UHGV virus genome: UHGV-0205583
Source: a virus
Reading direction: 5' to 3' (one strand)
DNA length: 52,029 nt
A program made the translations under genes and the position numbers. A model generated the notes under the pieces. It saw nothing but the letters and a program-made list of their open reading frames with translations. It made no database searches and was not told the origin of the DNA. Below, piece after piece: positions 1,993 to 43,468 of this stretch. Numbering within the stretch: the stretch's first letter is position 1; every line of letters starts with the position of its first letter.

Positions 1993-4900
1993 CCATTCGT
2001 TTTTACCCGTCCCGGCTTCCCGGTGAACCTCTCGAAACGCATGAACATGGCGTAACCAGCCTTCGTAACTGGCTGGCGGTGAATGTTGAAGGTTACGAGG
2101 ATCGGGATTTGCCGCCGCTGACCATTGAGGTTGACGGTCTGTCCATTCCGCCAGGCGAGTGGGCCACCTGCGTGATCCGCCCTGATAGTGATGTACGGCT
2201 TTATCCGGTCCCCTTCGGGCTGGAGGCAGCCACAATCGCGTGGATTGGTGTCGGTATCTCCGTTGCCGCAGCAGCCTATTCACTGTTTATGATGAGCAAT
2301 ATCGATACGGGAGGCTATACATCATCCACAGGGCGCAGTCTCGACCTGAACCCGGCGCGGGCCAACACCGCAAAACTCGGTGATGCCATTCGTGAAGTGT
2401 TTGGCCGGGTGCGTATCTACCCAGATTATGTGGTCCAGCCTGTGACCCGGTTCGACGTTGCTGATCCAACGAAGATGCGTGTCCAGATGCTGCTGAGTCT
2501 TGGGGTCGGTGACCTGGAATATTCCACTGGCGATATCCGGGTTGGCAGTACGCCAGCTTCAACGCTGCCGGGGTTCAGCAGCACCCATTACCCGCCAGGC
2601 GCTGACGTTTCCGGCGATGAGCGCAGCGAGAACTGGTTCAACTCGACAGAGGTCGGTGGAACATCAAGCGGAACAGGGCTGGACATGGCCCAGACCTCAC
2701 CTGATTCCGACGATATTATCGCTGACAGCATGACGGTTTCTGGTGCATCCGTAACCTTTACAGGCCTTGATACGGATGATGGTGACGATGACGACGAGGA
2801 CGATAATTCTCTTCCGGACAGCTGGGTAACGGGGGCCATAGTTGAAATTAAGGCGCCGACAAATTATCTGATCTCCACCTCTTCTGGTTACAGTGTTTTT
2901 GCCAGCTCGTTGCTTACCGAACTTGCTCCCGTAGCGGGTATGCCGGTGACGCTGAGTTTCAACAGTGTCGATTATGACCTCGTCATTGCGTCCTATACCC
3001 CAAGTCAGGAGGCGGTGCCTGGCGAGGGTGGCAGTGCAGCAAAAATTCAGGCCAGTGCCGCTCCTGTTACCTATGATTTTTCGACCAGTTCCAGTACGTT
3101 CATGATCACATGGCAGGGTACCACCTATACGGTGTCGCTGGTAGCGAACTATATCTCGATGTCGGGACTGCTGGCGGCTATTACCGAGGGGCTCACTGGC
3201 TCCGGCCTGGTCGCACGGGACAACGGCGGTACCGTACTGATAACCGAGGCGGCCAGTCCGTTCGTTGGTGGGGCAATCACATCCTCCTCGCTGCCTGCAG
3301 CCGTTTTCGGTGATGCCCCGGTTTACACCTCCGGCACGGCATCAACCGGCGGCAGCCCGGCGGTAACGGCGAATGTGACGCTTGCCTATAACAGCGCCAC
3401 GGGAACAGCCTTTTCCGGCATGCCGGAGGGGGTGCAACGGCTTTCACTTGCTCACCGCGGGAATGAGTACCGCATTGTCTCGACCGACGGCACGACGGCG
3501 ACGGTGGCGCGCCTGGTTAATGGTGCCGTTGATGAGTCATGGCAGGGATTCACCGCCAGGACGATGATCGACTATGAGGCCACTGGTCTTAACGACACGC
3601 TGAGCTGGCTTGGGCCTTTCCTCGTATGCCCTGAGAATGAAGTGGTGGATGCATTCGAGGTGAATTTCTCCTTCCCGAACGGCATCTGTGGCTTTGACAG
3701 TAAGGGCAAAAAACGGATCCGCCACGTTGAGTGGGAGATTCAGTATCGCGTCTACGGTTCCGGTTCGGGGTGGGTGAGTCACCAGGGCGAGTACGCGCTT
3801 AAAAACATCAACGGGTTAGGTTTCACTGAGCGGATCACCCTCAGTTCTCCGGGACTGGTAGAGGTTCGCTGCCGTCGGCGCAATGAGCAGGGCTCAAACA
3901 ACGCCAGGGATTCGATGTACTGGCAGGCACTGCGCGGGCGACTGCTGACGCGCCCTTCATCCTATCCCGGCGTGTCGCTGATGGCAGCGACCGTTGAGAC
4001 GGGGGGCAAATTGGCGGCTCAGTCGGACCGCCGCGTAAACGTTGTGGCCACGCGCGCCTATGACTCAGGAACGGCCAGAACTATCTCGGGTGCTCTGCTG
4101 CATGTCGGAAACTCGCTGGGGCTGGAGATGGATGTCGACACCATCAACGCGCTGGAGTCCGCGTACTGGACGCCACGGGGGGAAAATTTCGATTTTGCTA
4201 CCGGAGACAGTATCTCAGCGCTGGAAATGCTGCAGAAGATAGCCAATGCCGGGAAGTCCCGCTTTCTGTTAAGCGATGGCCTGGCGACGGTCAACCGTGA
4301 GGGGATTAAGCCATGGACTGGCGTGATCACTCCGCATGAGATGGTGGAGGAGCTGCAGAGCGGATTTACCGTGCCCTCAGATGATGATTTTGATGGTGTC
4401 GACGTGACGTACATCAACGGGACTACCTGGGCAGAGGAGACCGTTAAATGCCGGACGCCTGATAATCCTACGCCGGTGAAAATAGAGAATTACAAACTCG
4501 ATGGGGTACTGAATCAGGATCACGCCTACCAAATCGGGATGCGTCGCCTGATGAAATACCTGCAGCAGCGGGTGACGTTCCAGACCACTACCGAGCTGGA
4601 CGCGCTGTGCTACAACACGGGCGATCGCATAGTGCTCACGGATGATATTCCGGGCAACAACACGATTTCCTGTCTGGTGGAGGCGATGACAACGGCTGGT
4701 GGCGTGACAACGTTCACCGTCACGGAGCCGCTGGACTGGTCTTTCGAAAATCCCCGCGCGCTGATCCGTTATCAGGATGGCTCTGCATCCGGGCTGATGG
4801 TGGCGAGCAGGGTGGGTGATTTTCAGCTGTCAGTCCCGCACCTGAGCGAGTTTGATGATCCCATGCGGGTTGACCTGTCGTCGGCAACCATCGAGCCGAT

Positions 4901-9903: not shown

Positions 9904-10045
9904 CGGCGATAAAAAATCCCCTTGAGCAGGCACACTCAAGGGGAAAATACTACATAACATCATTGCTGTGTGCGTCTTTGCGCTCATCTATCTTCCAAGA
10001 AGATGCCTAAAGCTTCCAGATATTTCTGGTCTGAGCAGTTAAAAC

Positions 10046-10110
10046 ATTGGGTCGGTAGCCGATGTAATAGGAGGGGTGCAGACGATTTATAAATATTTTC
10101 CAGCCGGTTA
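10046..10110 (+). repeat. third, more decayed copy of the invertase HTH-coding segment (VADVIGGVQTIYKYFP)
   Basis: Visible alignment to 9272..9318 and 9850..9897. Confidence 0.5.
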
Positions 10111-10334
10111 AGTTTGCTCACCTGCGAACCGTATGCAAGAGATCGCAGGTGAGCAATTTGCTATGAAGGCATTGCCATAGCTGAAAAATTTTAACCTCGC
10201 ATTGTTCGCAAAACCATCAAACAGCTAAGGCCAGAAAACACTTTCAGACTAACCTTACTCGTTACATCAATGTGTTACGGCAATGACAAAAATTGATAGC
10301 CAGAACCTATATTGATCTGTCGCCCTGTTAAAAC

Positions 10335-10354
10335 TACTGTATATAAAAACAGTG
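10335..10354. promoter_or_regulatory. LexA (SOS) box upstream of umuD
   Basis: TACTGTATATAAAAACAGTG fits CTGT-N8-ACAG perfectly and lies 20 nt upstream of the umuD ATG. Confidence 0.85.
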
Positions 10355-10374
10355 TTAATCTGAGCGAGTCAATT

Positions 10375-10794
10375 ATGCAGTTTTACACGCCCGTTGAGTT
10401 ACGTGAGATCATGCTGATCCCGTTGTACAGTGACCTTGTGCAATGTGGTTTTCCAAGCCCTGCACAGGATTACGTTGAGCAACGCATCGATCTGAACGAG
10501 TTGCTCGTTAACCACCCCAGTGCGACGTATTTTGTCAAAGCCGCCGGCGACAGCATGAAGGATGCCGGCATAGGAGAAGGTGATCTTCTTGTTGTGGATA
10601 GCTCAAGGACAGCAGTTCATGGCGATATCGTTATCGCTGCAGTGGATGGGGAATTCACCGTTAAGAAGCTGCAGCTGCATCCGCGGGTTCAGCTTAACCC
10701 AATGAACCCTGCATATTCGCCGATAGTCGTCGGTAGTGAGGACACTCTCGACGTGTTCGGGGTGGTTACGTACATCATCAAATCAGCTGGCTGA
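10375..10794 (+). CDS. umuD: DNA polymerase V subunit UmuD (S24 peptidase)
   Basis: About 75% identity to E. coli UmuD by eye ([50 protein letters not shown]). The start was chosen at [12 protein letters not shown]. Confidence 0.9.
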
Positions 10795-10795
10795 G

Positions 10796-12061
10796 ATGTT
10801 TGCACTTTGCGATGTGAACTCATTTTACGCATCCTGCGAAACTGTTTTCCGTCCTGACCTGAAGGGGCGTCCGGTGGTCGTTCTGTCAAACAACGACGGC
10901 TGTGTGATCGCCCGCTCGCAAGAGGCGAAGCCCTTCGTCAAAATGGGCGAGCCTTATTTCAAGCAAAAGGACATGTTTCGCCGGCACGGTATTATCGCGT
11001 TTAGCAGCAACTATGAGCTTTATGCCGATATGTCCAACCGAGTGATGACAACGCTGGAGGAACTCTCTCCACGCTGCGAAATTTACAGTATTGATGAGGC
11101 ATTTTGCGACCTGACAGGAGTTCGGAATTGTCGCGACCTTACCGACTTTGGCAGGGAAATTCGCGAGACGGTTCTGCGCAGGACGCACCTCACGGTCGGT
11201 GTCGGCATAGCCCAGACTAAAACCCTGGCAAAGCTGGCCAATCACGCGGCGAAACAGTGGCAGCGACAGACCGGAGGAGTGGTGGATCTGTCTAATCTTG
11301 AAAGGCAGAGGAAGTTGATGGCTTTGCTGCCGGTGGATGAGGTCTGGGGCGTCGGGCGCCGTATTAGTAAAAAGCTGGAGGCCATGGGGATTAAAACGGT
11401 ACTGCAACTGGCGGATACCGATATCCGTTTTATCCGGAAGCATTTTAATGTGGTTCTGGAGCGAACTGTGCGGGAGCTGCGCGGAGAGCCATGTCTCGGT
11501 CTTGAGGAGTTCGCGCCGGTAAAGCAGGAGATTGTCTGTAGTCGCAGCTTTGGGCAGCGGATTTCCACCTACGAAGAGATGCGCCAGGCGATATGCAGCT
11601 ACGCCTCACGTGCAGCGGAGAAACTCCGTGGTGAGCATCAGTACTGCCGCTTTATCTCAGCATTCGTCAAAACCAGCCCCTTTGCGCTGAATGAACCGTA
11701 TTACGGGAACAGTGCATCGGTAAAGCTGCTAACGCCGACCCAGGACAGCCGGGACATCATCACCGCGGCGACGAAATGCCTCCATGCAATCTGGCGAGAC
11801 GGACATCGCTATCAGAAAGCAGGCGTGATGCTTGGTGATTTCTACAGCCAGGGCGTAGCGCAGCTCAACCTGTTTGATGACAACGCTCCACGGCAGAACA
11901 GCGAGAAGTTGATGGAAGTTCTCGATCATCTCAATGCGAAAGACGGACGGGGAACTCTGTATTTTGCAGGGCAGGGAATCCAGAGCGCCTGGCAGATGAA
12001 GCGGGAAATGCTATCGCCACGTTATACAACCCGGTTTTCAGATCTACCAGTTGTCACGTGA
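10796..12061 (+). CDS. umuC: DNA polymerase V catalytic subunit UmuC (Y-family polymerase)
   Basis: The N-terminus MFALCDVNSFYASCETVFRPDL is near-identical to E. coli UmuC over its length. The ATG lies 1 nt after the umuD stop. Confidence 0.9.
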   Translation: MFALCDVNSFYASCETVFRPDLKGRPVVVLSNNDGCVIARSQEAKPFVKMGEPYFKQKDMFRRHGIIAFSSNYELYADMSNRVMTTLEELSPRCEIYSIDEAFCDLTGVRNCRDLTDFGREIRETVLRRTHLTVGVGIAQTKTLAKLANHAAKQWQRQTGGVVDLSNLERQRKLMALLPVDEVWGVGRRISKKLEAMGIKTVLQLADTDIRFIRKHFNVVLERTVRELRGEPCLGLEEFAPVKQEIVCSRSFGQRISTYEEMRQAICSYASRAAEKLRGEHQYCRFISAFVKTSPFALNEPYYGNSASVKLLTPTQDSRDIITAATKCLHAIWRDGHRYQKAGVMLGDFYSQGVAQLNLFDDNAPRQNSEKLMEVLDHLNAKDGRGTLYFAGQGIQSAWQMKREMLSPRYTTRFSDLPVVT

Positions 12062-14807: not shown

Positions 14808-15917
14808 TTAACCCACGTATTCCGGTTTCATGTCGTCCAGGGCGATGCGGAACTGGTCATACAGTTCATCACCGAGGTGGCGTTTCGCGCCGTTGAGAAT
14901 GCCTTCAGCTTTAGCGAACAGTTCGACGGCTTCCGGTTCTCCGGGATTAGGTAGAGAGTTGATCGCGGCCTCAACTTTGTTTCGGGCGTCTACCATGAAA
15001 TAACGCTGCACGGCTTTACCTTTCAGTTCGGTGAAAAGAACAGTGCCCAACACAGCTTTCTCTTTATCCAGATCCGCCCTGATGGCTTTTGCTGCATCGA
15101 CCGATTCGGCGCGCTCAATGCGGTCACGGAAATCATCTGCCAGGGAATCAATATTGAGAGCTGAATCCTGCGCGCTGGTGGTGATGTCTGTTCCGCTGGT
15201 GATCTCTGCGACAGACATTCTTTGCGCCGGCGCCGGGTTTATTTCTCGCTCGGTCCTTTGTTCAACTTCATCCGGGCTGTAAACACCCAGGATGACTTCC
15301 GGGCAATACAGCCGTGCCCAGTATTTGACGCCCAGATAAGCGATCTGCTGTTTCGGGTTAGAAACCCACAAAGGAGAATTACGTGTGACGACTCCAGAGA
15401 GATAAAGTGGCTCCCCCCAGGTGATTTCTGATTCACCGCGCAGAATCGCGCCGACCTGGACGAATAACCCGATTTCGTCTTCATCAGTCCAGCCGCGCAC
15501 CCGTTCTGTAACGCTGTATTTCCCATTTTTACCGTGTTTTTCCCTGGTAATTTCCTGCGTCCTTGTGCAACGTTCCCAGTCGCCGCCGTAGCGATAATGA
15601 AATCGACCGTTAATAGCGCTGGAACTGGCGATTACCGCGTTGACGAGCTGGGCTTCATATCCGAGCACGCCGTTTACCAGATGCGTTTTTTGCGCGACTG
15701 CATAGGGATTCATGCCCCACTGCATAGCCTGCATAACGATGGCCATGCAATCGGCTGGCTTACCTGCAAGGTGAGCTGGCACTGTCACTTGTGAATCAGC
15801 CATAAGGTTTGCGAAAGCAGTTAACTGACCGAGAGCCTGAACGTTAAAGATCGCGTTGCTAGCTGAAATGGTGTTTGGTGCCTGCTGTTCGGCTGTAACA
15901 ATGTTAGTGTTTTCCAT
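14808..15917 (-). CDS. recT: RecT-family single-strand annealing protein
   Basis: 369 aa directly downstream of the RecE-like exonuclease gene. Its central region resembles RecT/Redbeta-superfamily annealing proteins. Confidence 0.65.
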   Translation of the reverse strand: MENTNIVTAEQQAPNTISASNAIFNVQALGQLTAFANLMADSQVTVPAHLAGKPADCMAIVMQAMQWGMNPYAVAQKTHLVNGVLGYEAQLVNAVIASSSAINGRFHYRYGGDWERCTRTQEITREKHGKNGKYSVTERVRGWTDEDEIGLFVQVGAILRGESEITWGEPLYLSGVVTRNSPLWVSNPKQQIAYLGVKYWARLYCPEVILGVYSPDEVEQRTEREINPAPAQRMSVAEITSGTDITTSAQDSALNIDSLADDFRDRIERAESVDAAKAIRADLDKEKAVLGTVLFTELKGKAVQRYFMVDARNKVEAAINSLPNPGEPEAVELFAKAEGILNGAKRHLGDELYDQFRIALDDMKPEYVG

Positions 15918-15929
15918 GACTGTTCCCCC

Positions 15930-18900
15930 TTATGCCTGTACGCGCAGCGCTTCGAGACGGCGCATATCAAAATCGTTAAGTTCTTCGGTGTAGTCTTCGG
16001 TAATCGGCGCCGGCCATTCGCCAGTGTCGAAACCGTTCGCGATGGCACGCATTGCTTTGCGATATTCCAGCATGCCGAGTTCCAGCAGTTCTTCGGATGC
16101 CTCGATGATGGCGATCCAGTGGTAGTTCTCGTCTTTGTTGACGAATATCCAGAAGAACTGGTCAAGGGCTGCGGTTTCGCAGTACATAGCCGCGCTCAGG
16201 TGGTAATCGCGCTCGATGATTTCCCGGTGCAGCTTCGCGCGCAGGCCTTCCTGCTTAATGTTCCACATACTGATGGTTTTCAGGTCCGCACCAATGCGCA
16301 GGCCGCCCATGTCTATTTCAAGGTCAGGGCGCACGCGAACTTCCAGCCCGGTTTCCTCATCAATGCCGAAATAGCTCACCTCGACGGCACGGCTCGGGTG
16401 CGTCAACAACTTGCCAGCGGTCGGGTGATTCAACAGTGCTTTCTGAATGGCCAGTGCCGTAGCCAGCTGCTGGCGGGTAACCAGCACTTTTCCTTCCGGG
16501 TTCTCGCGCCATGCATCCAGCAGCTCGTCGGCAAACACGGCATCCGGTTTTACCGATTTCACGGCTTGAATCAGATCGGCCTTTGTGCCAGAGACTTTCA
16601 GGGGCTGCGCCTTCTGTGCTTCCTGAGCAACCATGTTAGGATTAATAAGCGCCAGCTGTTCCAGTAAGACATCGCGGCCACCGCTGGTTTTCACCTGGGC
16701 GGGCAGGTTCGCGTTGTATTCTTTGATGCAGGCCTTCATTGCGGTGGCGGTTTGCTTCTGACCGTCTTCAATGCGCTGGAACTCAGCAGGTAAAGACATA
16801 TAACCCTGGCCGGTTTCTTCAACTGATGTACCCAAGGGAACCTGGGCGGGCAGGTTCGCGTTGTATTCCTCCAGGAATCTTTTGATGTCATCTGCGCTGA
16901 GTAAAACCGGAAGCCCGTTGTTGTATTCGTCGATAAATGCGCGGATCGTCGCCGTCGTGGTGAAGGCACCTTCCGGGATTTCCGGCTCGATACTGAATTC
17001 TTTTTCCAGCTGATCAGGCTGCAGCGCCAGTGCATGCACCAGATTGCCCATATCCAGAACAGGAGAGCGCACCTTCTGGATGGTTTTGGATACGTGGCGC
17101 GCCTCGAAATACATCAGCGATACCCGGGCATCTTTAACCATCGTGGAGCTGATGCCGTTAGCGGCGTGGTAGACCTCATTTGGCACGCCTTCATATCGAC
17201 CAGGCTCGAAATACTCCGGCCATGCTGGCGCTGCTTGTTCAGCCTCTTCCTCTTCATCGCTATGAGCACTCTCTGAAACCTGGCTTTTCAGCACTTCGGT
17301 GGTAAGATCCGGGCAGCGTTCAGCCAGTATTTTGCTCATGTTCACGGCAATTGTTTGCGCAGGAGGCTCATCAGCGCCTTCGCCTGCTGATACCGCATTA
17401 TCATTTTCGTCTTCGACCGGCTGAGCCGTTTCCATCTGCACATCGCTGGTGGTTTCCCCGGAATTAGCTGGATGTAATTTTTCTTCTGCAGCGCGCTGGC
17501 GCGCCTGGTCCACGATAGAAAGTGCTGGTGCTGGTGCTGGTGCTGGTGATGGCTGGCTATCCATCAGACCATCAATCGAAAAAACACCATTGCCCATGTT
17601 TGAAACTTCAGGCTGTTTGGGTTTGGTCAGGTCTTCGGTTATCCACTTCGGATCCGTGGGGTCACTGATGCCTTCGACATATTCGCCACGTTCGGCGGCC
17701 AGAACCTGATTAGCGTCAGGGCGTTTCTTTTGAGCTTCTTTCACCAGTTCGGTGCCAATTACCTGAAAGTCAGTTGGGAGAGTTTCCAGGTCAGGCACAC
17801 CTTCATCTCCATCGATAGCCTTTTTCACAGCGTCCAGAGTGACGGCGGCAGATGAAACATGACCAGCTTTTTCAAGAGTCTCAGCAGAAGGGGCGTCATG
17901 CTTATGCTCGGTCAGGTTCGCATTGATATAGGTCTGCAGACTTACCGGGAAATGATGAATGTCGCTAGTGGCGCCACGAATAAGGGCAAAAATCGCGGCG
18001 CGGGAATAATCCAGGATGCCTGCAACCTTGCGCAGCGCTGCCGACCATTCCTTGAACGGACTTTCTTTCTTCTGAACGATCTCTTTGGCCCGGCGGTGAA
18101 TTGATGCCGGGAAATTGTAGATATCGAAATCCATTGGCATTGTGGCCAGGGCTATTTCTACATCGAGCGTATCAAGGGTATGGGTGTAGTCAGGGTTGCG
18201 ATCGGTTTTATTACCGCCGCCAGCATTAGTTCCTGCATCAGTTTTCAAAACCGAAGAAATGCAGTTACCGGCAGCCCATTCCCTGGTGAGAATGCCGCGG
18301 TCGATCGCGTTCGTGGCGAACCACAGCTTTGCAAACTGAATACGTTTGCCGAGCTCATGCCGTTTCCCTTCCGGGAAGACTTTTTTATTGGCGCTGGTGA
18401 ATTTCCACAGGCCAGGCATATCATATTTTTTAAGCTCCGGAATATTTTCTGCCGTCAGCAGCAGATTCTGCACACCGTGATTATCCGTATCCATTTCCAT
18501 CGCTGAAAGGCGGTTACGATGAGGAATGCTAATGTGATACACGTGACGTTCGTCGGCCATATACTGGGCAAGCAGCTGCGTGCGGAATGACATTTCTGCT
18601 AGGTTGAAGAGTGCTTCTTCATTGTTCGAATAGTCCTCTTCATCGCTATTTGCAGGAGAGATATCGTTTTCTGGTTTACTGGAGGGCTGTGGTTCAGCCG
18701 CCGCCGGTGTAACGATTTTTTGCCATGTCAGCCCGTCTTTACCACCAAGCTCGTAACGATCGCACCAGGTATCATCCAGTACACCTTCTTCCGGTAAGTC
18801 ATCAACGATGAGCCAGTTGGTGCGGATCGGCAGCTGATGGCTGGCGCCGCGGCCAACGTTAATTTCAGCGTCTTCCAGGATGTCCAGGATTTTGCGCTCG

Positions 18901-23770: not shown

Positions 23771-24002
23771 TTATGCCTAAAATGGAATCAACAGCATCTG
23801 GTACGGGATGTCAAAGCTAAGTTCAAATATTCCGGGATGAGGCAAAGCTGAGATGTCCGCTGAGTGCCAGGAGCAGACATTAAGGAAATTGTGATATTTT
23901 GAGTGATGACAAGCCGTTTCCACTCAATTTTTAATTCTCAACACGCCCACTGCTGCAACTCCAGAAAATGATAGATATAATGTTCACACATTTACTTTAT
24001 TA

Positions 24003-24236
24003 ATGCTTCTCGCTGAGCGTTGCCGCATAACGCTCGGTGGATAGGCATTGATGCGTTTCAAAGCTCTGCTAAACACTGCCTGTGAGGCATAGCCGAGGCG
24101 GAGAGCGACTGTGTAAATTAAGTTCTTATCGTGAATAATTAAGTGGCCAGCGAGACGCATTCGTACTTCTCTTGCATAGCGTTGGACACGCTGCTGAACG
24201 GAGTAATGGTTGTGACGGCCATTGCCACCTCAGTCG
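24003..24236 (-). pseudogene. AraC-family regulator C-terminal fragment
   Basis: Translation ...YAREVRMRLAGHLIIHDKNLIYTVALRLGYASQAVFSRALKRINAYPPSVMRQ matches the AraC second HTH. There is no upstream start, and a stop precedes it in frame. Confidence 0.5.
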
Positions 24237-24717
24237 CGGCACTGACCCCAAGAAGAAGTCATTTGTTGCGATGACAAGTGGCTTGGAAAACTATATAGAC
24301 GTGATGAGATCTCAATGGGTATTGCTCACAGCCTTGAAAGAGGAGGTCTTCTTCGAAAAAAAATCAATGGCCTAGTTTTGATTGATAGCTACGCCCTGAT
24401 CAATAGGTTGGGCTTCGGTGAAGCCCGGAGTGATTTGTGCAATGGGTGTTTGCAGAAAATTGAGAATGCTTAGGCCGAATGACCAAAAATCAGAAAGTCT
24501 TTTTGGGGGCGGGAGCGCCATCTTCTGTAAAGCTTGCGGTCCATATGATGGCATACTGGCTTGTGGCGCGACTCTTCTGTCACTAGGCAGCGTACTGTGT
24601 ACTAAGCATTACGTCCAGACTCGTCTTAAGAAGATGGCACTCATTCCTCGAGGTCAAGAAGCGCGGAAAAAAGACGAAGCGATGCCAGGAGGACAATGGT
24701 CAGTGATGATCCAGTAG

Positions 24718-24984
24718 TCAGCTGGTTTGTATGCGATCATAATATTCGATGATTTGCAGCGCAACTGCAGCAATTTGCACAGCTTCTTCTCTGCTGGTAC
24801 CGGCTGCTTTTCCCCCGAAACGGTCATGGAGAACGGCCTGATGAAACTCTCCCACTTCCTCCCCAAGGATAGCCCCCCAGATGAAAGGATCCAGATTGCG
24901 GTCTGCTCCCCATTTTGCATCCTGCCGTTGCATTTCAGCTAACACATCTTTCAGTGCTTCGGTTTCTTGATGTTTATATTTCAT
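24718..24984 (-). CDS. MazG-like nucleotide pyrophosphohydrolase domain protein
   Basis: 88 aa with an EEVGE...EE helix pair (GAILGEEVGEFHQAV...REEAVQIAAVALQI). Confidence 0.5.
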   Translation of the reverse strand: MKYKHQETEALKDVLAEMQRQDAKWGADRNLDPFIWGAILGEEVGEFHQAVLHDRFGGKAAGTSREEAVQIAAVALQIIEYYDRIQTS

Positions 24985-25129
24985 GATTCCCGTTACGTAC
25001 CCGTCATTTTATGCGCTATCTTAAACATTAAATCTATGCTGAGTCCATTGCGATGACGCATCGCATTTTGTGATTGAACGGTAAGTTTGCTATAAACGTA
25101 GCAATGACAAAAATTTAAAGTGGATAATC

Positions 25130-25456
25130 TTGTACATTACCTTTCAAAGCAAAAAGTTAAGAGCTCTTTGTGAGAGTATGCACAATGCGAATGAGAACCT
25201 TGGTGAGAAACTAGCATCCAAGCTACGCGCACGCCTTTCCGATATCACCGTGGCGGACAATATTTTAGCATTGCCCGTCGGTTCGCCGGAGGTATGCTTT
25301 GAGGAAGGGGAAGAGTGTATTACAATTACCCTTTTGGGCGATAAAAAAATGGGATTTGTTTGTGGGAATACGATTCAGCCAAAAAATCAAGACAATACGA
25401 TTGACTGGTCCCAGGTCAGCCGGATACGGTTAGTGTTCATAGGTGATGTGAAATGA
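25130..25456 (+). CDS. RelE/HigB-like putative toxin
   Basis: 108 aa. The N-terminal part resembles the plasmid-maintenance killer family (ITFQSKKLRAL...). Its stop overlaps the start of the Xre-peptidase gene (ATGA). Confidence 0.4.
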   Translation: MYITFQSKKLRALCESMHNANENLGEKLASKLRARLSDITVADNILALPVGSPEVCFEEGEECITITLLGDKKMGFVCGNTIQPKNQDNTIDWSQVSRIRLVFIGDVK

Positions 25457-26535
25457 TGGTAACGCAGGACTTCCAGCCTGACTGGGTATCTCCACCCGGT
25501 GATACGATTATAGATCTGATGGATGAACACGGAATTTCTGATGAGGAGTTGAGTAAAAAAATAGGCTTGTCCCTTGATCGGGGTCAGCAACTTCTTGAAG
25601 GGAAACTCCGACTGAATCCGTCCCTGGCCGACAAGCTTGAAGAGCTGTTCAGTGTGTCGACGGACTTCTGGATCAGGCGCGAAGATGCTTATCGCAGGCA
25701 AATAGAACATATCCAGAAAGTTAACAGCGACTGGCTGGAATCATTGCCCGTACGCGATATGATGGAGTTTGGCTGGATCCCGAAAACCACAACGCGGGAA
25801 AGTAAATTCCGACACTGTCTGTCGTTCTTCGGTATACACTCCGTGAGTGAGTTTTTTCACAAAATACATTCTGATGCTCCACTGGTCGCCTTTCGTAAAT
25901 CATTGAATCTGACGACTGAGCCTGTCGCTGATCTGGTATGGCTGACCCGTGCAGAACAGTTGAGTGCAAAACAGGTCTGCGCAGAATGGAATAAAAAGGC
26001 GCTGCAGGCGCTTTTGCCGGAGCTTCGTAGAGCAACAAACGAACCTGATATGGGAATTTTTATCCCTCACATTCGGCGGCTTCTCGCGACTGCCGGGGTT
26101 TCGCTGATCGTGTTGCCAACGCCCAAGGGATGCCGGGCCAGTGGTGCCACCTGCTTTTTCACTCCAGACCGCGCCACGCTGGTCATGAGTTTCCGCTATC
26201 TTACCGATGACCATTTCTGGTTTACGCTGTTTCATGAGATTGGGCATCTCATTCTGCACGAGGCAGTGCAGGTTCGTGCGGAAGGTAAAGAAGGCCTGTC
26301 GACAGAAGAGGAAAAAGAAGCCGATACATTTGCTGTAGACGTCCTCATTCCTGAGGAATACAGGCAGCAACTCAGGCGCTATGGTGTTCGGCACTGGAGG
26401 GACATCGTCCGCACGGCCCGTAAAATAGGCGTATCAAAAGGGATTGTTCTCGGGTACTTACAACATGAGGGCAACATTCCTTTTTCTCACCTTAACCGGC
26501 TTAAGGTGAGATACAGTAAAGAAGACATTGTATAA
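25453..26535 (+). CDS. Xre-family HTH fused to ImmA/IrrE (COG2856) zinc metallopeptidase
   Basis: N-terminal HTH (ISDEELSKKIGLSLDRGQQLLEGK) and a C-terminal HEIGH zinc motif (FTLFHEIGHLILHE...EADTFA). Confidence 0.75.
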   Translation: MMVTQDFQPDWVSPPGDTIIDLMDEHGISDEELSKKIGLSLDRGQQLLEGKLRLNPSLADKLEELFSVSTDFWIRREDAYRRQIEHIQKVNSDWLESLPVRDMMEFGWIPKTTTRESKFRHCLSFFGIHSVSEFFHKIHSDAPLVAFRKSLNLTTEPVADLVWLTRAEQLSAKQVCAEWNKKALQALLPELRRATNEPDMGIFIPHIRRLLATAGVSLIVLPTPKGCRASGATCFFTPDRATLVMSFRYLTDDHFWFTLFHEIGHLILHEAVQVRAEGKEGLSTEEEKEADTFAVDVLIPEEYRQQLRRYGVRHWRDIVRTARKIGVSKGIVLGYLQHEGNIPFSHLNRLKVRYSKEDIV

Positions 26536-26537
26536 GT

Positions 26538-27482
26538 TCAGCCGCCAAAATAGACGTAGCGATCAGGTGACTTCTGCCAGTTACACAGCGCGTCTTCAAT
26601 GACCTGCATCCTGAGATATGGTGCAGGGATAATTTCGGCAAGTTCAGCCAGTTTATCATTCAGAGTCTCTAGCCTATCACCTGCGCTCCGGCTGTTACTA
26701 AACAGCAGCCGACTCCCCTGAAGAGGGCCAGTAGCTCCCTTCAAAAAAGCATGCCCCGGTTCTGCCTCGATGAGTCCGGTTTTTCTTAGCATAGTCAGGT
26801 AATCAAATCGGGCGGTTCGTCCGAATGAAACCACCGCATTCAGGCCTGAATACAGCAATTCGAAAAGAGTAGCAGGTGTTGCCGCGAGGCTCCTTGCTTC
26901 TGCAAACCGGGCCTCGTGGCTGTATGTTGCACCAATAAATCCGAGATATGAACGAAAAACGACAGGTATAGAACGACGTGAATGATATTTTTTCGTTTCA
27001 TATTTGCGGTGGTTACCATACTGTCTTAGACTGCTATGTAGGGTCAGCTCATCAGAAACGCTGGCAAACCACTGTTCAAATGCATCAAAGTCATCAGTTA
27101 TGGCATCCCATGTCCACGTCTGGGTACCTAGTCCACTGTAAATATCGCGGCACAAAACCCAGCCTGTTTTACTACTCCGGCCAAAATGCGTGGCCAGAAA
27201 AACCAGCCAGCAGGCTTCGTCATAGTTGTTTTCACGCAGATGCAGACACGCAGCACGAAGAGGATCAAATAAATCTGAGTTTGGCTCTTTTCTTAGCGGA
27301 TTCATATAATCGGTTCGTGATGTCAGCGTTGACATATAGCGAATGCGGCGAATACTGTCAATAATCTGAAAGGCTAATACATTATAGTGAGCCGCAGAAC
27401 TCAGTCCGTTTAGGATATGTTTATCGCGACTGAAGTTTTGAAGAGCGGCGACCAACTGGCTTGCCTGACTGTGTCTGTTCAT
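26538..27482 (-). CDS. hypothetical protein, operon partner of the thymidylate-synthase-like gene
   Basis: 314 aa whose start overlaps the ThyA-like stop (ATGA at 27482). No family assigned. Confidence 0.5.
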   Translation of the reverse strand: MNRHSQASQLVAALQNFSRDKHILNGLSSAAHYNVLAFQIIDSIRRIRYMSTLTSRTDYMNPLRKEPNSDLFDPLRAACLHLRENNYDEACWLVFLATHFGRSSKTGWVLCRDIYSGLGTQTWTWDAITDDFDAFEQWFASVSDELTLHSSLRQYGNHRKYETKKYHSRRSIPVVFRSYLGFIGATYSHEARFAEARSLAATPATLFELLYSGLNAVVSFGRTARFDYLTMLRKTGLIEAEPGHAFLKGATGPLQGSRLLFSNSRSAGDRLETLNDKLAELAEIIPAPYLRMQVIEDALCNWQKSPDRYVYFGG

Positions 27483-28717
27483 TATATTTTCCCGTCAAAA
27501 ATAAATCGGTATTCCTGATTATTCAACGCAGTCAGCTCCTGACGGGCCAGCTCGTTGTGTGCCGACGTATGTGAACGTAACAAAAAATGGACTTTTATCA
27601 CGCGCAGAAGATCCTTCCAGTAGTCACTCAAGGGCGTAGTATCGATATTAAATTCCTTGTTTTCCCGCAGAGCCTTTTCTGCTTCAAGGATGACTGTAAT
27701 GTCCTTTAAGGATTGAATTTCGGGCATATCACCCATCACCGGCAAGGTACTCATAAAGCCTTCTTGTTGTAGCGCTTTTACTTGTTCAAAATGTTCTTCA
27801 TAGATATGGAGGCTTGAGACGAAGTGATGATAATACCCCAGTTTGCATCCGGTGAGGCGGGCGACCAGTTCCTGCAACATCGTGAAGGAGAACACATCAT
27901 GGGGTAAGCCCATAAAGGCATCGTTAGAGCGCATACAGACAAAAAGATGCAATGCATCTTGTCTGACAATAAATTGCAACGATATAGTGCACGGAATATC
28001 GGCATATTCTGTCTGCTCTGGATTACCCGTCACCAGATCTGAGGCATCAAACAGTTGTATCAGCGCGCGTCGAGTAGTTCTTTTCTCCTGCAGCAGACTG
28101 ATGACATTTTCCAACTGATTATACAGCCCGTGCATACTAAATAATCTCGGACCGTATCCCCCGTGTATTCTGCCGTCGGATTCAGCGTATTTTACGTAGC
28201 GAGGTATGAAGTGCCGGATGAAATCGAGATCGTTCTGGGCTGAGAGGTACCATAGCAATTCCCCCAGACAGCTGACAATTTTACCGCGGGATTCTGTCCT
28301 ACTTATTCTGCGGCGAGGATCGGTGAGAATCAGGTAGGCTCCCAGAATTTCAATATTTGCTCCTTTAGTGGGAGTATTCCAGAGTCCGCCAGTAAGGATC
28401 GCCTGATGGACATCGTTTAACAGATCGTCAACACATTCAGCCGTCACCAGAAGAGTCATAAACTGCCTGTTATATAATGAATGTAACAAATCATTACCAC
28501 TAGTGCGATAAATAGTCAACATGCCATTAGTAAAAACAGGGCTATAACCGCTATGACACATATCATCAGGTGCGAGGTTTGACACCCATGTTTCCTCCAT
28601 TCCCTCTGGAAGCAAAAAATGTTCACGTAGAATAAGAACTGAGGGACGCAGACGCATGCAGGCCACTCGCCAGGGTATTCCTCCAAATGAACTGGCCGGT
28701 TTCCTAATATCAGCCAT
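27482..28717 (-). CDS. thymidylate synthase superfamily enzyme (ThyA-like / candidate dNMP hydroxymethylase) with N- and C-terminal extensions
   Basis: Aligns by eye to E. coli ThyA across its core blocks (LGELLWYLS, YGPRLFSMHG, RRALIQLFD, and the catalytic IPCTISLQFIVRQDALHLFVCMRSNDAFMGLPHDVFSFTMLQ). 411 aa versus 264 aa for ThyA. Confidence 0.75.
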   Translation of the reverse strand: MADIRKPASSFGGIPWRVACMRLRPSVLILREHFLLPEGMEETWVSNLAPDDMCHSGYSPVFTNGMLTIYRTSGNDLLHSLYNRQFMTLLVTAECVDDLLNDVHQAILTGGLWNTPTKGANIEILGAYLILTDPRRRISRTESRGKIVSCLGELLWYLSAQNDLDFIRHFIPRYVKYAESDGRIHGGYGPRLFSMHGLYNQLENVISLLQEKRTTRRALIQLFDASDLVTGNPEQTEYADIPCTISLQFIVRQDALHLFVCMRSNDAFMGLPHDVFSFTMLQELVARLTGCKLGYYHHFVSSLHIYEEHFEQVKALQQEGFMSTLPVMGDMPEIQSLKDITVILEAEKALRENKEFNIDTTPLSDYWKDLLRVIKVHFLLRSHTSAHNELARQELTALNNQEYRFIFDGKI

Positions 28718-28750
28718 TAAAATAGCGCTGTAAACTTCATTACCAAATGC

Positions 28751-28818
28751 GGCGCGCCTGTAAGGGCCTGACTACAGGTTTAAACACTGTGCAACCACAA
28801 GTCCTAGGTCCGCTCTTC
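28751..28818. other. cluster of rare restriction sites: AscI (28751), PmeI (28778), AvrII (28803), SapI (28812)
   Basis: Two 8-bp sites, a 6-bp site and a type IIS site lie within 68 bp. Short GC-rich inverted repeats follow at 28807..28832 and 28851..28872. Confidence 0.7.
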
Positions 28819-29045
28819 GCTCATAGCGGACCTCCAAATCAGTTAGTTTGTCCGCTCTGTGCCAAGAGCGGAATCTGGAACGCCAGAGGTAGCAACGTTT
28901 CTTATCAAAGGTGTTGATCACCACAAAAATGACTGTATCCCTGTGATAGCGGATTTCGTCCTTTGTGGAGAAAAGATCAATCTAAACATGAGCATGGGTT
29001 AGCGAAAAGTGGCATTAAACGCTTGAACATTTCACCTAACAAGTA

Positions 29046-29065
29046 TACTGTTTATTTATACAGTA
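29046..29065. promoter_or_regulatory. LexA (SOS) box upstream of dinI homologue
   Basis: TACTGTTTATTTATACAGTA fits CTGT-N8-ACAG perfectly and lies 20 nt upstream of the ATG. Confidence 0.85.
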
Positions 29066-29084
29066 CTTGCGTGAGGAGCTAGTT

Positions 29085-29318
29085 ATGAAAGTGGAAATCA
29101 CAATTGATCGCCAAAAAAAATTGCCGGATGGCGCTGTGCCTGCTCTGGAGAAGGAGCTACTGCGGCGATTGGATCAAAACTTTAATAACTGCAGTCTTGT
29201 GATTCGTCGGGCCAGCTCCGATGGTTTGACCGTGCTTGGTGGAATGGACGGAGATAAAAAACGTATTGAGGAAATCCTGCAGGACACCTGGGAAAGCGCT
29301 GATGACTGGTTTTGTTAA
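29085..29318 (+). CDS. dinI: DinI-family DNA-damage-inducible protein
   Basis: High identity to E. coli DinI by eye (EVTI...LP.GA..AL..EL.RR, RIEEILQDTWESADDWF). Confidence 0.85.
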   Translation: MKVEITIDRQKKLPDGAVPALEKELLRRLDQNFNNCSLVIRRASSDGLTVLGGMDGDKKRIEEILQDTWESADDWFC

Positions 29319-32495: not shown

Positions 32496-32525
32496 TTGAC
32501 ACTTTGAATGTTTGCATCATAAATT
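32496..32525 (+). promoter_or_regulatory. candidate late promoter (TTGACA-N18-TAAATT) driving structured RNA copy 1
   Basis: Consensus -35 hexamer. The -10 hexamer ends 5 nt before the first G of the element. Confidence 0.4.
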
Positions 32526-32530
32526 ATTGA

Positions 32531-32641
32531 GGTGGTGAATCCCCCTATGCGGAGGGGCGACCAGTCAGTTACAGAAACCTGTAAATGCAGCGCGGGCCAT
32601 GCCGACTGGGGCATGCTCACCGGGAGGCACCCGGCACCACA
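32531..32641 (+). ncRNA. put-like structured leader RNA, copy 1
   Basis: Closing stem GGUGGUG...CACCACA. Internal hairpins CCCCU-augcgg-AGGGG, UUACAG-aaac-CUGUAA, CAUGCC-gacugg-GGCAUG and CCGGG-aggca-CCCGG. Confidence 0.45.
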
Positions 32642-32804
32642 CTGTCACTAAGCATATTGAATATTTCATAGTGGGTTTACTTTTGCGGTTGCCCTTCTAT
32701 GTTTATAGAACGTAACGGCAAAAGTGAATGCTTCCTGGTAAATCGGTAGCTCGGACTATTAGGTGCACCTTCCTTTCGTTACAGCCTTGGTTGCCAATTT
32801 TCTT

Positions 32805-32984: not shown

Positions 32985-33013
32985 TTGAAGAGACGTTATT
33001 GAGATGTTAAGTT
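32985..33013 (+). promoter_or_regulatory. candidate promoter (TTGAAG-N17-TAAGTT) driving structured RNA copy 2
   Basis: Same geometry as for copy 1, with the -10 hexamer 5 nt upstream of GGTGGTG. Confidence 0.35.
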
Positions 33014-33018
33014 TTATG

Positions 33019-33123
33019 GGTGGTGAATCCCCCTAGCGGAGGGGCGTAAACAGTTAGAAGCGAATCCTCAGCGCGAGTCACGGTGACTGACCAACGACTT
33101 ACCGGGAAGCACCCGGCACCACA
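33019..33123 (+). ncRNA. put-like structured leader RNA, copy 2
   Basis: Same architecture as copy 1, with compensatory changes in two stems (CCCCU-agcgg-AGGGG and GUCAC-gg-GUGAC replacing CAUGCC..GGCAUG). Confidence 0.45.
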
Positions 33124-33314
33124 ACTTCACCTCAAGCCCACGTTAACGCGTGGGCTGTTCTTTTCCAGCGGATCTATTCAAAGGCTGCGCATTTGCGTGG
33201 CCTTTTTCATTTCAGGCTCACGGGAATCATCATCGATACGGCTCGTTGTTAAATCAGCCCGATGGGCCTGACCCCCTACACGCACAAAGCACCCCGTTAA
33301 TCCGGAGGTGGAGT

Positions 33315-34840: not shown

Positions 34841-35026
34841 GGAACCATCGAATAATATGTTAGTTACCGGCCTCGTTCGGGAGAGCTGAGAATTGCCATC
34901 AAAAGACCAGCAGAGATGCCTGGTGCTCTGGTTGAATGTTCCGGCAAGTTGAAAATGATTGGTTCAATGAGCTCTTTCGATATTTAAATGCTTTCGATAA
35001 CTTAAATGAAGCTATCACCACGTTAT

Positions 35027-42514: not shown

Positions 42515-43468
42515 ATGCCTACGACCGTAAACAGTGACCTGATTATCTATGACGACCTCGCGCAGACTGCGTTTCTTGAGCGTCGCCAGGATAATCTGGA
42601 AGTCTTCAACGCCGCTTCAAACGGCGCAATCATTCTCGACAACGAACTGATCGAGGGTGATTTTCGCAAGCGCACCTTCTATAAAGTTGGTGGTTCTATC
42701 GAATCGCGCAACGTTAACTCCACCGACCCGGTAACGGGTAAAAAAATCGGTGCCGGTGAATCTGTCAGCGTTAAGGCGCCGTGGAAATACGGCCCGTATG
42801 AAACCACGGAGGAGGCGTTTAAACGTCGGGGTCGCGACGTTAGCGAATTCTCCGAGGTGATCGGCGTCGACGTCGCTGATGCAACGCTTGAAGGTTATAT
42901 CAAGTATGCCCTACAGGGTCTTGTTGCAGCCATTGGCGAAAATGCTGACATGACGGTATCCGCGGATATTGCCACTGATGGTAAGAAAACGCTGACCCGT
43001 GGCCTGCGTAAATACGGCGATAAATTTAACCGTGTTGCGCTGTTCGTTATGCATTCCACGACCTATTTCGACATTGTTGATCAGGCTATCGACAACAAAA
43101 TTTACGAAGAAGCTGGCGTGGTGGTTTATGGCGGACAGCCAGGCACGTTGGGTAAACCGGTGCTGGTAACTGACACCATGCCAGTTGATGCGATTCTGGG
43201 GCTGGTGGCCGGCGCGGTATCCGTAACGGAATCACAGGCTCCGGGCTTCCGTTCCTACGATATCAACGACCAGGAAAACCTTGCCATTGGCTATCGCGCA
43301 GAGGGTACGGTTAACGTTGAACTGCTGGGTTACAGCTGGGATGAGACGAAGGGCGCTAACCCTGACCTGACCAAAATCGGCACCGGCGCGAACTGGAAGA
43401 AACATTTCACCAGTAACAAATCCACTGCAGGCGTACTGATTAAGCTGGAAGCCCCTGCGGGGGAGTAA
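42515..43468 (+). CDS. major capsid protein
   Basis: 317 aa after the scaffold gene. Canonical position. Confidence 0.7.
   Translation: MPTTVNSDLIIYDDLAQTAFLERRQDNLEVFNAASNGAIILDNELIEGDFRKRTFYKVGGSIESRNVNSTDPVTGKKIGAGESVSVKAPWKYGPYETTEEAFKRRGRDVSEFSEVIGVDVADATLEGYIKYALQGLVAAIGENADMTVSADIATDGKKTLTRGLRKYGDKFNRVALFVMHSTTYFDIVDQAIDNKIYEEAGVVVYGGQPGTLGKPVLVTDTMPVDAILGLVAGAVSVTESQAPGFRSYDINDQENLAIGYRAEGTVNVELLGYSWDETKGANPDLTKIGTGANWKKHFTSNKSTAGVLIKLEAPAGE

Follow-up and report, generated by a model that had tools for sequence, protein, structure and literature searches.

What is the stretch of DNA at positions 28751-28872 of the virus genome UHGV-0205583, where the recognition sites of four cloning enzymes crowd into 68 bp and two inverted repeats follow, next to an operon for a thymidylate-synthase-like (ThyA-like) protein? 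A previous reading made from the sequence alone (hereafter, the sequence-only reading) placed the AscI site (GGCGCGCC) at 28751-28758, the PmeI site (GTTTAAAC) at 28778-28785, the AvrII site (CCTAGG) at 28803-28808 and the SapI site (GCTCTTC) at 28812-28818, and all four are indeed there, as are the inverted repeats, GGTCCGCT..AGCGGACC at 28807-28832 and TCCGCTCT..AGAGCGGA at 28851-28872. Our analysis of the whole 52,029-nucleotide stretch, which we call the window, points to a natural cassette junction: a cargo cassette is bounded by a 24-bp site, h2, on the left and by an h1-18 bp-h2 pair of sites on the right, and appears to be exchanged by site-specific recombination. We assign a probability of about 0.78 to this reading as a whole, with its individual parts being better or less well supported, as discussed below.

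The segment is, virtually beyond doubt, of natural origin. The 141 bp at 28740-28880 recur exactly in all nine NCBI assemblies that we fetched by way of the 325-amino-acid (aa) ThyA-like protein encoded alongside (27482-28459), a protein that is recorded in 194 blocks of a public assembly collection. The prophages of these nine independent assemblies differ from the window at 1-167 positions over 7.5-13 kb (98.6-99.99% identity), so that neither a polylinker or a scar of engineering or assembly nor an artificial junction, as proposed in the sequence-only reading, agrees with the data, and 28751-28872 is natural prophage DNA; one of the nine has a group II intron close by. Occurrence of the identical segment in several independent natural isolates is what the sequence-only reading itself had named as a refutation of its proposal. 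In the homologous segment of Escherichia coli TC24, a cattle isolate from Guadeloupe, GGCGCACC, GCTTTACC and CCTAAT stand in place of the AscI, PmeI and AvrII sites, respectively, three of the four restriction sites being broken by single-base differences. The AscI/PmeI part had zero matching plasmids in PLSDB, and a megablast search with 28700-29090 against E. coli genomes and phages gave no match, the homologues surfacing only in sensitive mode. Nothing at 28751-28872 is engineered, and a contamination or chimera flag is unneeded.

Comparison with related prophages locates the boundary to within a few bases. Four prophages from IMG/VR (L064, L104, L112 and L114) match the window at 93-97% identity as far as 23880-23882 and again at ~96-97% from 28804-28809 onward, with ~1 to 4.2 kb of unrelated DNA in between replacing the ThyA cassette. 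This break and resumption of homology define 23879-28807 as a cargo cassette, in line with the suggestion of a cargo insertion boundary in the sequence-only reading, and we consider it highly probable that 28751-28872 is the right-hand end of this exchangeable cassette. The sites involved, with the cassette between them, are as follows.

23855 to 23878, plus strand: left h2, GTCCGCTGA-GTGCCA-GGAGCAGAC, the left cassette boundary

23879 to 28807: cargo cassette of 4.9 kb, with h2 at its left limit and h1-18 bp-h2 at its right limit

28808 to 28831, plus strand: h1, GTCCGCTCT-TCGCTC-ATAGCGGAC, the right cassette end, enclosing the SapI site and the final AvrII base

28832 to 28849, plus strand: 18-bp spacer of the h1-h2 junction, CTCCAAATCAGTTAGTTT

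28850 to 28873, plus strand: right h2, GTCCGCTCT-GTGCCA-AGAGCGGAA, part of the right-hand backbone, which continues with TCTGGAACGCC...

Because the cassette ends at 28807, the AscI and PmeI sites fall within the last 57 bp of a natural cassette, in its own leader. The backbone to the left of the left h2 (GAATCAACAGC...GCTGAGAT) is found in at least 15 IMG/VR prophages with differing DNA on its right, and the right h2 with an identical right flank lies behind other cargo in L064, L104 and L112. Conversely, TC24 carries the module at 92% identity over window positions 23946-28806 in a different element, an island (L002) where the module adjoins an integrase gene and a tRNA-Leu gene; the homology ends at 28806, save for the first palindrome, that is, h1. 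The window copy itself belongs to a lambdoid prophage, in which it has the replication module on one side and dinI on the other. With these comparisons, a mobile 4.9-kb module encoding enzymes of the thymidine-hypermodification type is delimited to the base.

Both sites belong to a large family. The exact h2 pattern (GTCCGCT-NN-GTGCCA-NN-AGCGGAC, 24 bp) occurs in at least 120 IMG/VR stretches and in at least 120 stretches of species-representative genomes; among the viral copies, the left flank belongs to a few conserved backbone families and the right flank is highly variable. The h1 site (GTCCGCT-NN-TCGCTC-NN-AGCGGAC, also 24 bp) is the mirror image in this respect, with a variable left flank and a backbone-specific right flank (93-113 distinct copies elsewhere). 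The two sites alternate strictly on one strand (h2-h1, h2-h1-h2-h1 and so on) and delimit 74 distinct cassettes, whose lengths run from 53 to 5404 bp (median 1.6 kb). Between h1 and h2, 28 junctions have a gap of 18 bp and 4 have one of 16 bp, and the gap measures 614-660 bp where a recombinase gene occupies the slot. Phage P2 has an h2 (GTCCACTCTGTGCCAAAAGCGGAC) at 15335, 60 bp after gene G, and an h1 (TTCCGCTTCTCGCTCAAAGGAAAC) at 17432, a short way ahead of the pF activator site, and fun(Z) lies in the interval; these two copies have 1 and 4 mismatches to the consensus, respectively, and the window sites have 0-1. In the Qin prophage of E. coli K-12 MG1655 (L134, locus 9982-10996), h2 and h1 bracket flxA, and two- and four-cassette arrays are found in the P2-like phage 899 and a Qin-type prophage of E. 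coli 042. Matches to the junction were detected in 624 of the 5426 complete E. coli genomes, in 149 plasmids, and in the P2-like phages 899 and GMG73. Overall, the same sites bound cargo in P2-like phages, in Qin-type and Klebsiella-type lambdoid prophages, in islands and in plasmids.

Several individual loci of this family deserve mention. The Qin h2 falls within the annotated ydfV open reading frame (ORF), and by the h2/h1 definition flxA itself is a cassette. In L080 (1946-2046), the cassette is nearly empty, with 53 bp from h2 to the next h1, and in L113 (195-260), the CTTCGCT motif of one h1 is expanded to six tandem copies, resembling microsatellite slippage. The label “P4-like”, under which one backbone family was initially filed, was dropped given that the reference P4 lacks the sites; this family is a Qin-type lambdoid backbone.

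The anatomy of both sites is that of tyrosine-recombinase core sites, with 9-bp inverted arms (GTCCGCTNN; 7+2 / 6 / 2+7 bp) around an asymmetric 6-bp centre, and the variable dinucleotides next to the centre are informative on where backbone gives way to cargo. In a set of 78 dereplicated h2 sites, analyzed by mutual information with 2000 permutations, the left dinucleotide tracks the family of the left flank (z = 13.4, a value reached in 0 of 2000 permutations) and shows no association with the cargo (z = 0.7), the right one tracks the cargo (z = 3.1) and shows no association with the backbone (z = 0.4), and the two dinucleotides are mutually independent. This half-site linkage puts the switch between positions 9 and 16 of the site. 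The same picture emerges from one ~1-kb cargo (start ATTATAGATGG, end GCGTGACA-GTCTGCTTT) that is present in Qin-type (L031, L095, L124), P2-type (L055) and window-type (L104) backbones: at both ends of this cargo, the outer half-sites belong to the host backbone, so that in both sites it is within the 6-bp centre that backbone gives way to cargo. At the level of sequence comparison, these patterns show that the outer half-sites travel with the backbone and the inner half-sites with the cargo, with the exchange apparently taking place inside the 6-bp centres.

A candidate for the responsible enzyme is encoded within the family itself. In E. coli 042, the gene of a 200-aa protein, WP_023147793, has on one side an h1 whose right arm is altered and on the other an h2 whose left arm is altered. 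The protein consists of the Phage_integrase catalytic domain only (Pfam, 2e-17), and its alignment with XerD spans the H-x-x-R, LLGH and Y motifs. Relatives of this protein are present in 68 IMG/VR loci, and in the enterobacterial copies with available flanks, apart from two exceptions, the gene is set in the same frame. In order, a variable cargo end is followed by GTCCnnTnn-TCGCTC-ATAAGGGAC, ~40 nt, the gene, a hairpin, AGCAGCCCT-GTGCCA-nnAGCGGAC and a variable cargo start, and the outer half-sites are variable. The recombinase gene fills the very slot that in the window is held by the 18-bp spacer. A 55%-identical homologue from an alphaproteobacterial metagenome-assembled genome (MAG) is framed in a similar manner, by GTCCGCTCT-GCTCGA-AAAGCGGAC and GTCAGCTAA-GTGCCA-CGAACGGAC.

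The 200-aa protein scores below every NCBIfam cut-off, with 54.6 bits for NF040815 (cut-off 220), 44.7 bits for XerC (cut-off 335) and, for the FimB/FimE models, 27.5 bits for PRK09871 (cut-off 222) and 19.2 bits for PRK09870 (cut-off 221); in public records, it is named just “site-specific integrase” or “tyrosine-type recombinase/integrase”. Its relatives are 77-95% identical across many gammaproteobacterial genera, and the recombinase module was found in 912 of the 5426 complete E. coli genomes, at times on plasmids or islands with h1/h2 arrays. We infer that the 200-aa protein is the cognate enzyme of h1 and h2, and somewhat favour the view that site-specific recombination at these sites is carried out by this small recombinase. 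The broader proposition, that h1, h2 and the 200-aa recombinase represent a widespread, uncharacterised two-site cassette-exchange system that is integron-like in outcome and has a sister version in Alphaproteobacteria, stands at about even odds.

Outside prophages, h1/h2 arrays together with the small recombinase occur on the 72-kb E. coli plasmid p720632_72 (L324), with a BCCT transporter gene and IS26 adjacent, and in the chromosome of E. coli PBP8 (L323), in an island with genes for dynamin-family and patatin-like proteins. Exact h2 sites are also present in multiple copies in many alphaproteobacterial MAGs (Pseudolabrys, Xanthobacteraceae, Methyloceanibacter; among L203-L322, e.g. L204, L230 and L304), usually ~20 nt downstream of another palindrome, GTCCGCTTT-ACCCCC or GGGTCA-nAAAGCGGAC, and recombinase homologues with 52-55% identity are encoded in two members of this set, L305 and L232. 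The alphaproteobacterial h2 repeats may belong to a sister cassette system or may be a dispersed repeat.

Under the proposed mechanism, the small recombinase would bind the 9-bp arms and exchange strands in the 6-bp centres. Given that the centres of h1 and h2 differ, like would recombine with like, and cassettes could move by two routes. A double exchange (h2 with h2 and h1 with h1) between two co-resident elements would swap the cassette; alternatively, recombination of a directly repeated pair of h2 (or h1) sites would release a circle with one h1-18 bp-h2 junction, which could then insert at any matching site, extending the array. On the window sites, the widespread 200-aa tyrosine recombinase would act in trans. 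The right arm of the window h1 and the spacer differ from those of the sister prophages, and h2 and the sequence that follows it are unchanged, a combination that suggests entry of the ThyA module by exchange at h2 on both sides.

Several observations weigh against this scenario or restrict its reach. The binding, cleavage and exchange are all steps that we infer from sequence. The small recombinase gene was not found in the window, so that any activity here would have to be provided in trans, and only ~17% of the complete E. coli genomes encode this protein. The reference P4 has no h1 or h2, so the sites do not account for all hotspot swapping, and the predicted empty site of the window-type backbone, GTCCGCTGAGTGCCANNAGCGGAATCTGG, had 0 matches in IMG/VR. 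The patterns used to collect the sites fixed both the arms and the centres, so that conservation of the centre is partly built in and diverged sites are under-sampled; furthermore, of the two dinucleotide associations, that of the right one with the cargo is the weaker (z = 3.1) because most cargoes are singletons. Finally, the whole junction, when single-stranded, folds into one long hairpin (-19.5 and -22.2 kcal/mol, depending on the strand, z ~ -6.7), which leaves some room for a mechanism with a folded substrate.

Among the alternatives, the one that fares best, although we still regard it as unlikely, is that the palindromes are conserved elements of the backbone, such as insulators, operators or moron terminators, and that the cargo is swapped by homologous recombination, ordinary or phage-encoded, in which they act as short stretches of homology and no dedicated recombinase takes part. 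When one cargo occurs in unrelated backbones, the sites are the sole sequence that these backbones have in common, the small recombinase is missing from many genomes in which the sites occur, and the recombinases of lambdoid phages accept short homologies. Homologous recombination is also counted among the candidate mechanisms in a 2026 survey of P2/P4 hotspots (PMC13586616). However, 24 bp is very short for RecA, the P2 annotation includes no Red-like system, and the absence of a T-run offers nothing for termination. Moreover, the crossovers fall between the variable dinucleotides and not anywhere in the 24 bp, two types of site with different centres alternate strictly, and the recombinase gene is embedded exactly between the site centres.

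The hairpin potential of the junction is the basis of the next, rather improbable, alternative, under which the junction would be a folded single-stranded substrate, either an attC-like hairpin formed by the left arm of h1 and the right arm of h2, or subterminal hairpins of the HUH/IS200 type. Apart from the long hairpin that forms on either strand, the junction has the size of an attC site and separates cassettes in arrays. Yet the solitary h2 and h1 at array ends show the exchange at the centre as well, and the left h2 has only a weak fold (-3.7 kcal/mol, z = -0.6); what accompanies the sites is a minimal tyrosine recombinase, and no IntI-type or HUH protein; and the cargo genes come in both orientations with leaders of their own. 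There is also no compensatory variation between the arms. In 113 copies of h1, positions 4 (C/T) and 21 (G/A) vary independently (odds ratio 0.99, p = 1), and for positions 8-9 versus 16-17, pairing is possible in just 28-40% of the copies.

The same independence of would-be paired positions speaks against the notion that the inverted repeats are a structured RNA, either a small RNA or an element of the 5' untranslated region regulating the ThyA-like operon or dinI. This is a very improbable alternative, even if two stable stem-loops do lie in a divergent intergenic region (28460-29084, between the minus-strand ThyA-like/aGPT-Pplase3 operon and the dinI-like gene). No intrinsic terminator or T-run was found in 28380-29120 on either strand, and no Rfam family matched the region, either at the gathering threshold or with the search extended to E <= 10, where the best hits scored 12-17 bits against cut-offs of 39-90. 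The sites occur in every orientation relative to the neighbouring genes and, with the exception of h1, lie outside the segment that moves with the operon in TC24. The lack of arm covariation, of a T-run and of an Rfam match fits protein-bound half-sites reshuffled by recombination better than a hairpin maintained by selection.

The clustering of restriction sites, which raised the question in the first place, came about by chance in natural DNA and is statistically unremarkable. The sequence-only reading expected about one AscI and one PmeI site per window and estimated their co-occurrence at well below 1e-3; the window actually holds 6 AscI and 3 PmeI sites, and the expectation for an AscI-PmeI pair is ~0.02, for a pair that was picked post hoc. 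For the 13 commercial 8-bp cutters with uninterrupted sites, there are 23 sites in the window, that is, 253 pairs, each with a chance of ~60/52029 of falling within 30 bp, which gives an expectation of ~0.29 close pairs. Of 2000 sequences simulated with a first-order Markov model, 20% also had a pair of 8-cutter sites no more than 30 bp apart, and the mean number of such sites in the simulations was only 13.8, against the 23 observed. One 6-bp palindrome is expected in any 68 bp, and the SapI site is there because h1 with NN = CT reads GCT-CT-TC. The isolated 8-cutter sites that had been listed elsewhere are real but lie 1-2 bases from the stated positions, at 4621 and 21570 for AsiSI and at 34982 for SwaI, and that list was incomplete. 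A second near-pair, PmeI at 42817 and SgrDI at 42865, 48 bp apart, indicates that such pairs arise by chance in this window. An engineered junction, be it a synthetic polylinker, a scar of cloning or an artefact of assembly, thus has next to no probability: four recognisable cloning sites in 68 bp, two of them for 8-cutters, do resemble a multiple cloning site with its enzyme sites in close proximity, but here they do not abut, being spaced by 19, 17 and 3 bp of conserved natural sequence, they are found in wild isolates or, as in TC24, broken in a natural homologue, and they are not enriched beyond chance.

We also compared the h1/h2 cassette junction with known systems. The closest is the fun(Z) locus of P2, around which inverted repeats were reported by Nilsson, Karlsson and Haggard-Ljungquist (2004, Mol Biol Evol 21:1), as summarised in PMC8987985. 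Hence this kind of boundary site has been known since 2004, and the window represents a further, new member, in a lambdoid prophage. The fun(Z) hotspot has the same sequences as the window sites, at the transition from backbone to cargo, and, according to that summary, led to the same suggestion of site-specific cargo exchange; the window copy differs in that it resides in a lambdoid prophage and carries the ThyA-like/aGPT-Pplase module. The lambdoid prophage of the window thus uses the same boundary sites as the classical P2 locus. The P2/P4 hotspot survey (PMC13586616) leaves the mechanism of defence-gene swapping unexplained, neither this survey nor PMC9122126 mentions repeats or hairpins at the hotspots, and full-text literature searches with the site sequences returned nothing relevant.

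The similarity to integrons is one of outcome: arrays of unrelated cargo with defence genes among it, imperfect-palindrome sites of ~60-70 bp and a tyrosine recombinase. The differences are multiple. No IntI-type integrase accompanies the array, and the scores against the Xer and integron models are far below the cut-offs; h1 and h2 lack the GTTRRRY core, and solitary 24-bp sites serve as boundaries; there are two alternating sites of the double-strand type instead of a single folded attC; the cassettes contain multiple genes with their own leaders, being self-expressed, in either orientation, with no fixed platform promoter; and the recombinase gene is found within the junction, not at the head of the array.

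In engineered recombinase-mediated cassette exchange of the Cre/lox type, a cassette lies between two sites with the same arms and different centres of 6-8 bp. By analogy, the different centres of h1 and h2 would favour like-with-like exchange and thus swapping over loss, although the system in the window is natural and its sites have a 9-6-9 architecture, not 13-8-13. With FimB and FimE, the small recombinase shares a size of ~200 aa, a catalytic domain only and a weak NCBIfam match named “tyrosine-type DNA invertase”, and the spacer of the Rci/sfx shufflon, GTGCCAA, is similar to the h2 centre GTGCCA. However, the scores are far under the family cut-offs (27.5 against 222 bits), h1 and h2 are arranged in direct order bounding cassettes and not inverted around an invertible segment, and their arms are unrelated to those of fimS and sfx.

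Should the two-site exchange reading hold, defence and other cargo would move among P2-like phages, lambdoid prophages, plasmids and islands in Gammaproteobacteria, with the sister version in Alphaproteobacteria using the same GTGCCA site with a different partner palindrome. It would also explain how antiviral cargo is exchanged so rapidly at phage hotspots; with linkage of the half-sites and a recombinase gene embedded between the sites, that question comes down to two 24-bp sites and one 200-aa protein. In practice, h1 and h2 could be used as landmarks when prophages, plasmids and islands are searched for cargo cassettes, new defence systems among them.

The content of the cassette, annotated with Pfam, PADLOC and NCBIfam searches, and the adjacent backbone features are as follows.

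23984 to 24160, minus strand: C-terminal fragment, 58 aa, of an AraC-type helix-turn-helix (HTH) protein (PF12833, below cut-off), conserved in TC24

24418 to 24717: ORF

24718 to 24984, minus strand: MazG-like gene

25130 to 25456: ORF

25453 to 26535, plus strand: HTH+ImmA/IrrE gene (PADLOC PD-Lambda-2_B, 5e-29)

26538 to 27482, minus strand: aGPT-Pplase3/ADDT gene, for a thymine-hypermodification-type enzyme

27482 to 28459, minus strand: ThyA-like gene, 325 aa

28460 to 28807, minus strand: non-coding leader and promoter region of the ThyA-like operon, holding the AscI and PmeI sites and most of the AvrII site

29046 to 29065, plus strand: LexA box, TACTGTTTATTTATACAGTA, read from the sequence, in the backbone upstream of dinI

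29085 to 29318, plus strand: dinI-like gene (Pfam PF06183, 1.3e-25), the backbone gene nearest to the junction on its right

The AraC-type fragment is probably what remains of a gene and moves together with the module. PADLOC gave no match for the ThyA-like and aGPT-Pplase proteins, and neither a hydroxymethyl-dUMP kinase nor a DNA polymerase was seen in the cassette; self-modification, defence and counter-defence are candidate roles for the ThyA-like/aGPT-Pplase cassette. The sequence-only reading correctly placed the restriction-site segment upstream of the ThyA-like operon, but the 411-aa ORF on which it relied (27482-28717, minus strand) is over-extended. The Pfam thymidylate-synthase match begins only at residue 146 of this ORF, the Prokaryotic Genome Annotation Pipeline (PGAP) calls the TC24 homologue at 325 aa, the start chosen by PGAP and by other gene callers is the ATG that corresponds to 28459, which is the conserved start, and a 1-nt indel relative to TC24 in the upstream 258 nt (28460-28717) breaks the 411-aa frame. 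This over-extension explains why an exact look-up of the 411-aa ORF found no record, the 325-aa version being the one on record. The leader is ~85% identical to that of TC24 and contains two weak sigma-70-like matches on the minus strand; the leader RNA (28455-28735) folds no better than shuffled sequences (z = +0.5).

Two further observations concern the backbone to the right of the junction. In L006 (OW969805.1), a 1909-bp group II intron that begins with GTGCG and encodes an RVT_1 protein of 494 aa is inserted at the equivalent of 29064/29065, that is, at the last base of the LexA-box palindrome. Some bacterial group II introns favour sites just after a palindrome, and the insertion in L006 fits this preference. 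Further downstream in the window, there are two Rfam matches to the STnc100 small RNA on the plus strand, at 32499-32704 (79.9 bits) and 32991-33162 (68.9 bits), both above the gathering score of 47; the pair lies downstream of a DUF968 gene, the two copies being ~500 bp apart.

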